NCBI GenBank assembly: GCA_043814765.1
Contig: JBDRJQ010000013.1
Location: 1 to 14,594, forward strand
Source of the DNA: Nanobdellota archaeon
GTDB lineage: Archaea; Aenigmatarchaeota; Aenigmatarchaeia; QMZP01
DNA: 14,594 nt
Direction of reading: 5' to 3'
Each line of letters starts with the position of its first letter. Position 1 is the stretch's first letter. This document shows, in pieces, positions 1,695 through 3,085 of the stretch. The translations under genes were made by a program, and so were the position numbers. The notes under the pieces were generated by a model that saw only the letters and a list, made by a program, of their open reading frames with translations, was not told where the DNA came from and made no database searches.

Positions 1695-2009
1695 ATGCCA
1701 GCTAAACCAAAAACAAAAAAAGTTGTAAAAGGTAATTCAACGAAGATTTTTTCTGATTTGAAGATAGAATTAGAAAAATTAAAGGCACAGAAAAAGGATT
1801 ATGATACAGCTCTTAAAACCATGCAAGAGGACATAAAAATAGTGCAGGATAACCAGTTAAAACTTAGAGATAAAATTTCTCAATTGGTGGCAAGAGAAAC
1901 AAACCTTACTGCTAAAAGAATGAGGATTGAAGAAAAAATAACATCAACTAAGGATAAGATTTCAAAAATGCAGAAAATTGGTACAGAACTTGAAGAAGTC
2001 TGGGAGTAA
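1695..2009 (+). CDS. Hypothetical coiled-coil protein
   Basis: 104-aa ORF directly abutting the upstream stop (TAA-ATG), with SD GAGGTGGTGA at 1681-1690. Heptad-like L/I/M pattern with many K/E residues. Confidence 0.75.
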   Translation: MPAKPKTKKVVKGNSTKIFSDLKIELEKLKAQKKDYDTALKTMQEDIKIVQDNQLKLRDKISQLVARETNLTAKRMRIEEKITSTKDKISKMQKIGTELEEVWE

Positions 2010-2059
2010 GCCTTCGCAGCAATCTCCCTGAGTTTCTATTTTTATAATTTTTAATCGGA

Positions 2060-2067
2060 TTTATAAA
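2060..2067 (+). promoter_or_regulatory. Putative TATA box of the tRNA gene
   Basis: TTTATAAA ending 26 nt upstream of the mature tRNA 5' end. The context is AT-rich, so the exact box is uncertain. Confidence 0.45.
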
Positions 2068-2130
2068 TCATATTTTATATATTCTTATTAATAGCCCTGT
2101 AGTGTAGTGGTCCAGCACGTCGGGTTTTGG

Positions 2131-2173
2131 ATTTCGGTTCAAAACTTTGAGTCCTTTTGGGCAGTGAGAAAAC
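2131..2173 (+). other. tRNA intron 1 (43 nt, canonical position 37/38)
   Basis: BHB motif: central helix U32-U35 (2125-2128) pairs with GAAA (2168-2171); 3-nt bulges GG|A (2129-2131) and AC|A (2172-2174). Confidence 0.88.
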
Positions 2174-2194
2174 ACCCGGCAACCCCGGTTCGAA

Positions 2195-2325
2195 CCTAAT
2201 CCCTTTTACGGGAGCGAAAAGCTTGACGGCTTTTCTCAATTGAAATAAGCCGTCTGTCTGTTTTCGCTTCCTCAAAGGTCTAAGGCTTACCCCAAAACAA
2301 GCAAATGAAAGGTGATTAGCGAAAC
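2195..2325 (+). other. tRNA intron 2 (131 nt, non-canonical T-loop position 59/60)
   Basis: Strict BHB motif: central helix UUCG (2189-2192) pairs with CGAA (2320-2323); bulges AA|C (2193-2195) and AC|U (2324-2326); flanked by the T-stem and an inner helix CUAAUC (2196-2201)/GAUUAG (2314-2319). Confidence 0.9.
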
Positions 2326-2336
2326 TCCGGGCGGGG

Positions 2337-2555
2337 CTATTTATTTTCTAAAAGACGAATACCTTTCTGCGTTATCACAAGGCATGTTCCTAATGATTCT
2401 ACCTTATCCACGTAACCCATGTCAATTAACCTTTCCACGTTAACTTGTGTGCTATTGCCGTTTTCCCTCTGTAAACGTGTAACTAATTCATGTTTTGTAA
2501 TAAGGTGCTTGCCTTTTAAAATAGCAAGAATCTGCTCTTCTGTTTCGCTCAGCAT
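2337..2555 (-). CDS. Small winged helix-turn-helix protein
   Basis: 72 aa with a wHTH-like pattern (LSETEEQILAIL...VERLIDMGYV...VITQKGIRLL). Its start overlaps the stop of the upstream DJ-1 gene (ATGCTGA), suggesting translational coupling. Confidence 0.7.
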   Translation of the reverse strand: MLSETEEQILAILKGKHLITKHELVTRLQRENGNSTQVNVERLIDMGYVDKVESLGTCLVITQKGIRLLENK

Positions 2556-3085
2556 ACTAAACCTCTCTTAGTCTGCTCTGCCTTTTCTTTTCCTGACAGA
2601 ATCTCCACTAGTTTTAATGCGAACTCTATTGCTGTGCCAGGACCCTTGGAAGTTATTATGTTGCCGTCTACTATAACATTTCCATCCCTTGGTCTGGGTA
2701 TTTCTCTCTCCATGCCAGGATATATTGTAGCTTTTTTGTTATCCAATATGCCTGCTTTTGCTAGAAGAGAGGGTGCTGCGCATATTGCTGCTATAACCTT
2801 GTTCTCAGAATTGAATTTCTTTATGGCTGCTGCAACGCTCTGCGTTTTTCCAAGATTGATATAGCCAGGATTTCCTCCTAACAAGACAAGGGCGTCAAAT
2901 TTGTCTAAATTAATCTCTTCAAACCTTTTATCCGCCATAAAGATTATATCATGCGCTCCTTTTACCATCGTTGCCGGTATGCCCGCTGTTACTGCATCCA
3001 AACCAGCCCTGCGCAGAACGTCTATTGTTGAGCTTGCTTCTATCTCTTCAAATCCTTCAGCAAGCGGAATTAGAACCCTTTTCAT
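2549..3085 (-). CDS. DJ-1/PfpI (ThiJ/YajL-type) glyoxalase III/deglycase family protein
   Basis: Motifs LAEGFEEIEA, LRRAG, GG, AAICAAP (nucleophile Cys), ATIYPG, DGNIITSKGPGTAIEFAL. Confidence 0.93.
   Translation of the reverse strand: MKRVLIPLAEGFEEIEASSTIDVLRRAGLDAVTAGIPATMVKGAHDIIFMADKRFEEINLDKFDALVLLGGNPGYINLGKTQSVAAAIKKFNSENKVIAAICAAPSLLAKAGILDNKKATIYPGMEREIPRPRDGNVIVDGNIITSKGPGTAIEFALKLVEILSGKEKAEQTKRGLVC

Follow-up and report, generated by a model that had tools for sequence, protein, structure and literature searches.

The tRNA-Trp intron of Haloferax volcanii, about 100 nt long, carries a box C/D guide RNA. In Thermoproteales, a single tRNA can contain up to three introns bounded by bulge-helix-bulge (BHB) motifs, at canonical as well as non-canonical sites, and families of transposed introns have been described (parts of PMC4033280 and PMC4090602, summarising Sugahara 2008 and Fujishima 2010). 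For ARMAN-2 (Candidatus Micrarchaeum acidiphilum), parts of PMC3239211 and PMC3488258 report a 13-nt intron at position 59/60 of pre-tRNA-Cys(GCA) and introns at 53/54 and 59/60 of pre-tRNA-Pro(GGG). The splicing endonuclease EndA of ARMAN-2 cleaves a 59/60 intron in vitro, which makes 59/60 a documented site (part of PMC3239211), and the epsilon2 form of EndA was known solely from Micrarchaeum and Mancarchaeum as of 2018 (part of PMC5829648). Here, we describe a tRNA-Gln(UUG) gene that is interrupted by two introns and occupies positions 2093-2339 of a 14,594-nt stretch of DNA, contig JBDRJQ010000013.1 (C13) of the Nanobdellota archaeon assembly GCA_043814765.1. This whole stretch is referred to as the window and the genome, whose assembly is 88% complete, as G000; coordinates are those of the plus strand of the window unless a contig is named. 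The locus is very probably a functional intron-split gene of a small DPANN archaeon, matured by ordinary BHB splicing and containing a long, modular intron.

When the three exons (2093-2130, 2174-2194 and 2326-2339) were joined by script, ARAGORN identified a 73-nt tRNA-Gln(ttg) with an acceptor stem of 7 bp, a D stem of 4 bp, anticodon and T stems of 5 bp each, A73 and an A1-U72 pair. The variable loop of the spliced tRNA has 4 nt, and CCA is not encoded. Archaeal tRNA-Gln is recognized by a UUG or CUG anticodon, U33, A73 and A1-U72 as the first pair. All of these features are present in the G000 gene and throughout an orthologue set (8/8) that comprises the tRNA-Gln(UUG) genes of seven related genomes and of G000, each spliced in silico on the basis of landmarks. 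The parts of the locus are given below; intron 2 contains a repeated module (module M), into which an insert with a hairpin (hairpin H) is nested.

2060..2067, plus strand: TATA-box-like element TTTATAAA, a putative promoter at -33 to -26 from the tRNA 5' end.
2093..2130, plus strand: exon 1, 38 nt, tRNA positions 1-37 (ARAGORN; alignment with the seven orthologues), comprising the acceptor 5' strand, D arm, anticodon stem 5' strand, U33, anticodon UUG and G37.
2131..2173, plus strand: intron 1, 43 nt, at the canonical position 37/38, with a BHB whose outer helix is weak; bases 2137-2143 are complementary to the anticodon loop, and GUCC-UUUU-GGGC forms an internal hairpin.
2174..2194, plus strand: exon 2, 21 nt, positions 38-59 (ARAGORN; orthologue alignment), comprising A38, the anticodon stem 3' strand, variable loop, T stem 5' strand and T-loop TTCGAA.
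2195..2325, plus strand: intron 2, 131 nt, at position 59/60, with a strict hBHBh' motif; its sequence is a mosaic of repeated modules.
2195..2215, plus strand: module M 5' block (CCUAAUCCCUUUU AC GGGAGC; alignment A1 of 28 copies), of which 2196-2201 double as the 5' strand of the outer helix of the intron 2 BHB.
2216..2265, plus strand: 50-nt insert with hairpin H (arms GACGGCUU/AAGCCGUC, 2224-2255), delimited by comparison with the G001 orthologue.
2266..2296, plus strand: module M 3' block (GCUUCC UCA + AAGGUCUAAGGCUUACCCCAAA), from pattern searches of the phylum and order and from covariation.
2308..2325, plus strand: 3' closing segment of intron 2 (AAAGG-U-GAUUAG + CGAA + AC), from the fold, with the outer helix 3' strand at 2314-2319, the CGAA of the central helix at 2320-2323, and AC as the first two bulge bases.
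2326..2339, plus strand: exon 3, 14 nt, positions 60-73 (ARAGORN), comprising U60, the T stem 3' strand, the acceptor 3' strand and the discriminator A73.
2340..2349, plus strand: T-rich stretch TTTATTTTCT adjoining the 3' end of the gene, which we take to be a likely archaeal oligo-T terminator.

In G000, the Ile(GAU) gene likewise has a TATAAA upstream, at -33 to -28.

EndA cuts after the second base of each 3-nt bulge of a BHB motif, and both introns are bounded by such motifs. At intron 2, the T stem (CCCGG/CCGGG) provides the inner helix, TTCG and CGAA form the 4-bp central helix, the bulges AA|C and AC|U have 3 nt each, and CUAAUC/GAUUAG forms the outer helix. In ViennaRNA folds with the cloverleaf stems forced, this BHB is part of the minimum-energy structure, and forcing it costs 0 kcal/mol (-87.6 kcal/mol either way). 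The BHB of intron 1 has a 3-4-3 arrangement in which the anticodon stem serves as inner helix, the bulges are GG|A and AC|A, and U32-U35 pair with GAAA (2168-2171) through three A-U pairs and one G.U pair; the outer helix is irregular, with 6/8 of its first positions paired and 2 bp ahead of the first mismatch. Its central helix is paired at 4/4 positions in 8/8 orthologues and covaries among them (UUUU/GAAA, CUUU/GAAG, CUUU/AAAG, CUUU/GAGG and CCUU/GAGG). We also defined BHBs mechanically (central helix 4/4 paired, inner helix at least 3 bp, outer helix at least 2 bp, intron 11-260 nt). Of ~4.3e8 position pairs in G000, 79,625 satisfied this definition (a fraction of 1.85e-4), both introns among them. 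As the cloverleaf fixes the exon ends independently, two chance BHBs at these ends would be expected at ~3e-8 if independence is assumed, and we infer that coincidence is negligible. Of 283,046 two-intron combinations across the genome, eight yielded an ARAGORN tRNA spanning both junctions, with Gln(UUG) among them. The original prediction, a reading of the letters of the window by a model, had thus been right in its coordinates, exon lengths and junction words, in proposing a three-exon tRNA-Gln(UUG) with a canonical and a 59/60 intron, and in placing BHB motifs at the borders of both.

The split architecture extends to related genomes, and the introns of the eight orthologues are as follows.

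G000: no D-loop intron; 37/38 intron, 43 nt; 59/60 intron, 131 nt.
G001 (same genus): D-loop intron, 29 nt; 37/38 intron, 44 nt; 59/60 intron, 145 nt.
G022: no D-loop intron; 37/38 intron, 40 nt; 59/60 intron, 47 nt.
G006: D-loop intron, 40 nt; 37/38 intron, 49 nt; no 59/60 intron.
G028: no D-loop intron; 37/38 intron, 35 nt; 59/60 intron, 14 nt.
G038: no D-loop intron; 37/38 intron, 45 nt; 59/60 intron, 35 nt.
G032: no D-loop intron; 37/38 intron, 47 nt; no 59/60 intron.
G025: no D-loop intron; 37/38 intron, 47 nt; no 59/60 intron.

All eight spliced sequences were called Gln(ttg) by ARAGORN. Their T stems show compensatory changes (CCCGG/CCGGG, CGCGG/CCGCG and GGCGG/CCGCC), and acceptor position 6:67 occurs as U.G, G-C, U-A or C-G. 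Between G000 and G001, 68/74 positions are identical in the exons, 36/44 in intron 1 and 106/145 in intron 2. A survey of relatives had been proposed at the outset; in this set, the 37/38 intron is present in 8/8 orthologues, the 59/60 intron in 5/8 (14-145 nt) and a D-loop intron in 2/8, and the contents of the 59/60 introns are unrelated beyond the genus. At least four other tRNAs of G000 also bear T-loop introns: Leu(UAG) with 81 nt, Val(GAC) with 107 nt, Ala(UGC) with 46 nt and Pro(GGG) with 62 nt. Given these introns and those of the orthologues, the architecture of the Gln(UUG) gene is ordinary for this Aenigmatarchaeota-like lineage. The earlier description of the gene as unusual therefore holds in a relative sense, 59/60 being a documented site that is occupied in more than half of the orthologues and in other tRNAs of the same genome. 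A literature search found no paper on tRNA introns of Aenigmarchaeota.

Two observations concern the surroundings of these genes. In a tblastx comparison of window positions 2010-2346 with loci L003, L004, L009 and L018, the tRNA-Gln gene of G000 is inverted with respect to its flanking genes (the DJ-1/PfpI side and the side of a 104-aa open reading frame (ORF)) relative to G001, G022, G032 and G038, with the remaining gene order kept. The 16S rRNA gene of G000 is split over two contig ends (C29:3-1391 and C37:105-942); on C29, ~875 nt lie between model positions 1162 and 1248 and ~134 nt between 1281 and 1344, which suggests rRNA introns or insertions. The tRNA-Ala(UGC) gene with its T-loop intron lies downstream of 16S.

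As had been anticipated, standard scanners miss the gene, and this applied to both that were run. ARAGORN identified 0 tRNAs in the window, and Rfam returned 0 matches at the gathering score and no tRNA match at E-values up to 10; seven weak Rfam matches (E 0.63-7.1), including snoRNA, miRNA and CRISPR repeat, are ascribed to chance. Over the whole of G000, the Rfam tRNA model RF00005 gave 27 matches, none on the contig of Gln(UUG), and ARAGORN with its intron option returned just 27 tRNAs, several of them miscalled. An intact tRNA-Gln(UUG) elsewhere would have favoured a pseudogene; no second UUG gene was found in the 88%-complete assembly by ARAGORN with introns allowed, by a BLAST search of the genome with the locus as query, by the Rfam tRNA model or by a BHB census allowing one to three introns. 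A tRNA-Gln(CUG) gene is present at C1:10998-11101. ARAGORN with the intron option miscalls it as Thr(tgt) with an anticodon-loop intron, and removal of a D-loop intron of ~31 nt restores tRNA-Gln(ctg). Its acceptor, D and T arms are identical to those of Gln(UUG), and its D-loop intron resembles that of the G001 Gln(UUG) orthologue. The suspicion that the genome may seem to lack tRNA-Gln(UUG) was hence justified for this isoacceptor, although not for glutamine as a whole. In 312 long ORFs of G000, 1767/3801 Gln codons (46%) are CAA; as a CUG anticodon is unable to read CAA, Gln(UUG) is needed for these codons. Without annotation of this gene, to which ARAGORN and the Rfam tRNA model are both blind, G000 seems unable to read CAA, and many tRNAs of the lineage will likewise be missed by such scanners.

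The genome encodes the enzymes for processing such a transcript. EndA of G000, encoded at L001:865-2052, is a single chain of 396 aa (Pfam tRNA_int_endo, E 8.6e-28), of which residues 18-396 align over the full length with residues 20-387 of the ARMAN-2 EndA structure 4fz2_A (E 2.5e-94). K160 aligns with K161, the specificity lysine of the ASL loop, and the motifs RIY, WIHSKH and KKTF align with the catalytic residues Y236, H251 and K282, all conserved; the roles of these four residues in ARMAN-2 EndA are described in part of PMC3488258. On the basis of this alignment, the G000 enzyme is classified as epsilon2, the three-unit ARMAN-2 type, in agreement with the initial guess of an ARMAN-type enzyme. 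Homologues of 55-80% identity were found at 31 loci (L022-L052), mostly in records titled Candidatus Aenigmatarchaeota. This widens the range stated in 2018, in the part of PMC5829648 referred to above; later reports were not searched for. RtcB ligase (E 1.9e-157) and an archaeal CCA-adding enzyme domain (E 2.6e-44) are also encoded.

Transcription would start from the TATA-like box at -33 to -26, and the pre-tRNA would offer two independent BHBs, at 37/38 in the anticodon loop and at 59/60 in the T-loop. The epsilon2 EndA, with its predicted broad specificity, would cut between the second and third bulge bases and release introns of 43 and 131 nt, after which RtcB would ligate the three exons and CCA would be added. 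The two BHBs share no nucleotides, so that the free splicing order suggested earlier is plausible, with the qualification that the predicted ground state lacks the BHB of intron 1. Since EndA reads only the BHB at the intron borders, growth of an intron may be tolerated, and the long T-loop intron may represent a tolerated landing place for small repeated elements, built up at the DNA level.

This arrangement resembles that of ARMAN-2, as far as parts of PMC3239211 and PMC3488258 describe it, in its DPANN host, its single-chain, three-unit EndA with the ASL lysine and catalytic triad, the 59/60 T-loop intron, the presence of several introns per tRNA, and the many disrupted tRNA genes. It differs in its Aenigmatarchaeota-like host, with EndA of records titled Micrarchaeota being 41-44% identical to that of G000; in a T-loop intron that is ten times longer (131 vs 13 nt) and has a strict BHB where that of ARMAN-2 is relaxed; and in an intron composed of repeated modules, none being described for ARMAN-2 in those parts of the two papers. 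With Thermoproteales, as portrayed in parts of PMC4033280 and PMC4090602, G000 shares multi-intron tRNAs, intron sequences common to different tRNA species and an endonuclease of broad specificity, which is predicted in G000. Thermoproteales belong to a different phylum and have an (alpha-beta)2 rather than an epsilon2 EndA, and the units shared in G000 are nesting sub-intron modules that also occur in spacers and at gene 3' ends. The gene structure itself, a multi-intron BHB tRNA in a host with epsilon2 EndA, is already known and not exceptional in the lineage. New are the modular intron 2, the covariation of module M, its spread through the phylum, and its link to tRNA T-loops and the end of the EndA gene.

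Parts of intron 2 match many other sites in related genomes. Where G000 has the 50-nt insert (2216-2265), G001 has only TAAC; hairpin H, as part of this insert, is nested within the loop of module M. The same hairpin also constitutes the 59/60 intron of Ala(UGC) in G000 and contributes to the one in Val(GAC). A loose regular expression for H gave 14 hits vs 12 in a shuffled genome, and near-perfect copies alone are therefore cited. Module M of G001 is interrupted elsewhere, by a different element of ~62 nt; this element also interrupts, at the same point, the module M copy behind the G001 EndA gene, and that genome has about ten further copies of it. Despite these differing repeats, the BHB ends of intron 2 (CCUAAUC ... 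GAUUAGCGAAAC) are identical in G000 and G001. Intron 2 is thus a stack of small repeats, and the sister genomes differ in which repeat sits where. A nested intron, with H carrying its own BHB, was considered and rejected, as no strict BHB candidate spans 2216-2265 and the region folds into a continuous helix. In the 60 nt preceding many tRNA genes of G000, among them Ile(GAU), Val(UAC), Ala(UGC), Arg(UCU) and His(GUG), there are also hairpins related to H (GACGRCU..AGYCGUC), which span about -45 to -10 and have TATA-like sequences in their loops near the expected position of the promoter box.

In module M, a variable loop separates the 5' block CCYAAUCCCUUU from the 3' block AAGGUCUARGGYUUACCCCAAA, which corresponds to 22 nearly invariant nucleotides (2275-2296). 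A search for this 22-nt block, allowing up to three mismatches and with the reversed pattern as control, gave 46 matches in 16/91 genomes of the order (1-7 copies per genome; control, 0) and 72 matches in 31/371 genomes and 21/170 genera of the phylum (control, 1). RNAalifold on the 28 aligned copies predicted a hairpin with a covarying 3-bp closing helix: at one pair, C-G occurs in 18 copies vs G-C in 7, and at another U-A in 20 vs C-G in 8, with 0 copies broken at the latter. Hardly any variation is seen in the internal loop AAUC/UCUA or in the tail CUUACCCCAAA. We read 30 copies in their context. Fourteen of them lie in T-loop introns of various tRNAs (by eye), all in sense orientation, and three, from three genera, begin precisely at the EndA stop codon, where tblastn places the end of EndA (64-66% identity) at the first bases of the module. 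Two are just upstream of, and antisense to, one gene, presumably rps10, and the remaining copies lie in spacers. The orientation of free-standing copies relative to naive ORFs is mixed. Copies from other families include one in a D-loop intron and one in a spacer between tRNA genes. A second module (AUAAACCUUUUY..AAAAGGUUUAAUCCAAAAG) opens the T-loop introns of Val(GAC) (C35:29441-29547) and Pro(GGG) (C8:~23251-23313) in G000 and looks like a diverged relative of module M.

The 3' end of the EndA gene shows further peculiarities. Module M at its stop codon was seen at L071 (G007:C73), L080 (G067:C56), L092 (G021:C62) and L103 (G001:C24), that is, in three or four genera. There, the protein ends ..EIEWMKP, and the TAA lies inside CCUAAUCC. 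Among the 31 Aenigmatarchaeota-type EndA loci, the module is intact at two and split by a nested element at one; the copy behind the EndA gene of G001 is split in this way. In 5/31 related loci (L022, L027, L031, L040 and L044) and in the genome itself (L001:2040-2150), the EndA coding sequence ends in ~12 nt (GTGGATGAAACC-like) that recur ~40-90 nt downstream; the two copies flank a small insert, in G000 an H-like hairpin, and the protein end is kept. These repeats look like the outcome of recurrent insertions that duplicated a T-loop-like target.

As its long intron consists of repeat modules that also occur in spacers, the locus might be a dead gene, a former tRNA-Gln wrecked by repeat insertions while another gene decodes Gln. 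The failure of standard scanners at the locus and the incompleteness of the assembly would fit this explanation, and a second intact Gln(UUG) gene may lie on the missing DNA. We nevertheless regard a pseudogene as most improbable: the exons are intact and yield a canonical cloverleaf, both insertions are BHB-bounded in the exact register that restores the tRNA, a promoter box is at the usual position, and no other UUG gene was found despite the heavy use of CAA. Moreover, the split architecture is kept in G001 with exons more conserved than introns, and stem changes among the eight orthologues are compensatory. It is also quite improbable, in our judgement, that intron 1 is removed in another register or after a structural switch, with a hairpin between the anticodon loop and the intron as the real substrate state. 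In the minimum-energy fold of G000, bases 33-37 of the anticodon loop and two intron bases do pair with 2137-2143, and the stem-forced folds of four more orthologues contain an equivalent pairing. The hairpin between loop positions 32-37 and the intron thus competes with the 37/38 BHB in 5/8 orthologues; in the remaining 3/8, it can be traced by eye, and position 32 covaries. This hairpin would, however, bury the 37/38 bond in a helix, where no known EndA cuts. The BHB register, by comparison, retains its covarying central pairs and 3-nt bulges in 8/8 orthologues, and a shift of the junction by one base worsens the central helix, as judged from the sequence.

Our preferred interpretation, a functional gene spliced at two BHBs, has several points against it, besides the possible second gene on missing DNA. 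A search for sequencing runs, made with window positions 1700-2700, listed none. Relative to the fold that pairs the anticodon loop with a neighbouring stretch of the intron, forcing the 37/38 BHB costs 6.2 kcal/mol in G000 and 3.3-7.9 kcal/mol across the eight orthologues, and the outer helix of intron 1 in G000 has just two contiguous pairs. ARAGORN is tolerant; for the G001 orthologue, it accepted 36 alternative junctions in the D-loop. Whether H was inserted in G000 or deleted in G001 is judged from two genomes. Transcription, the cleavage sites, ligation and the direction of the insertion event are deduced from the sequence; the anatomy, enzymes, conservation and mosaic structure of the gene are observed.

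With regard to module M, one candidate explanation is that it is a functional structured RNA riding in the intron rather than selfish DNA, for example a motif bound by a protein, or an intron RNA that is circularised and stable, with a possible tie to the splicing endonuclease itself. The covarying closing helix, the invariant internal loop and tail CUUACCCCAAA, the persistence of the 22-nt block in 21/170 genera of the phylum and the sense orientation of all 14 copies in T-loop introns are consistent with such a role, as is the module at the EndA stop codon in three genera and, there split, in G001. We consider it doubtful all the same, as a DNA palindrome is equally expected to show hairpin covariation, no Rfam family matches the module, and copies also occur antisense to neighbouring genes. 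Its patchy distribution, with 1-7 copies in each of 16/91 genomes of the order, fits mobile DNA, and insertions of other small elements are seen within the module, where they would disrupt a functional motif. A guide function of 2275-2296 was rejected, as no antisense target of at least 11 nt exists anywhere in G000; three antisense 11-mers, on two other contigs, match the non-conserved flank 2291-2302. A K-turn, C/D or H/ACA reading of module M was likewise discarded, there being no tandem G.A in its loop and no boxes, by eye. Intron 2 accordingly resembles the tRNA-Trp intron of Haloferax volcanii as a long archaeal tRNA intron with a conserved structured RNA, but differs from it in having no visible box C/D or H/ACA, no credible Rfam snoRNA match and no antisense target for the 22-nt block.

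Tentatively, we propose instead that module M and the nested hairpins may be small mobile elements that make new EndA-spliceable tRNA introns by landing in T-loop-like DNA (GGTTCRAA|TCC), and that have repeatedly hit the similar 3' end of the EndA gene (TGGATGAARCC). The palindromic TTCGAA would supply one strand of the central helix, and the element and its flank would give the rest of the BHB. A hairpin element of the IS200/IS605 type (REP/RAYT-like) was rejected, with no match to PF01797 (Y1 transposase) or PF07282 (TnpB) in the 88%-complete G000. An origin of the 59/60 BHB by target-site duplication was also dismissed, as exon and intron end share CGAA alone (by eye); selection for a BHB explains the 59/60 ends equally well, because complementarity, not identity, tracks T-loop variants (TTCA with TGRR).

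The mechanism of intron transposition in archaea was called unknown in part of a 2014 review (PMC4090602), and part of a 2026 preprint on Asgard tRNA introns leaves their route of arrival open (bioRxiv 10.64898/2026.10.13.758758). Repeated, nested modules that differ between two genomes of the same genus offer a concrete system in which the origin and growth of tRNA introns can be followed. If the proposal of small mobile elements is true, this lineage would show archaeal tRNA genes in the act of gaining and enlarging introns.

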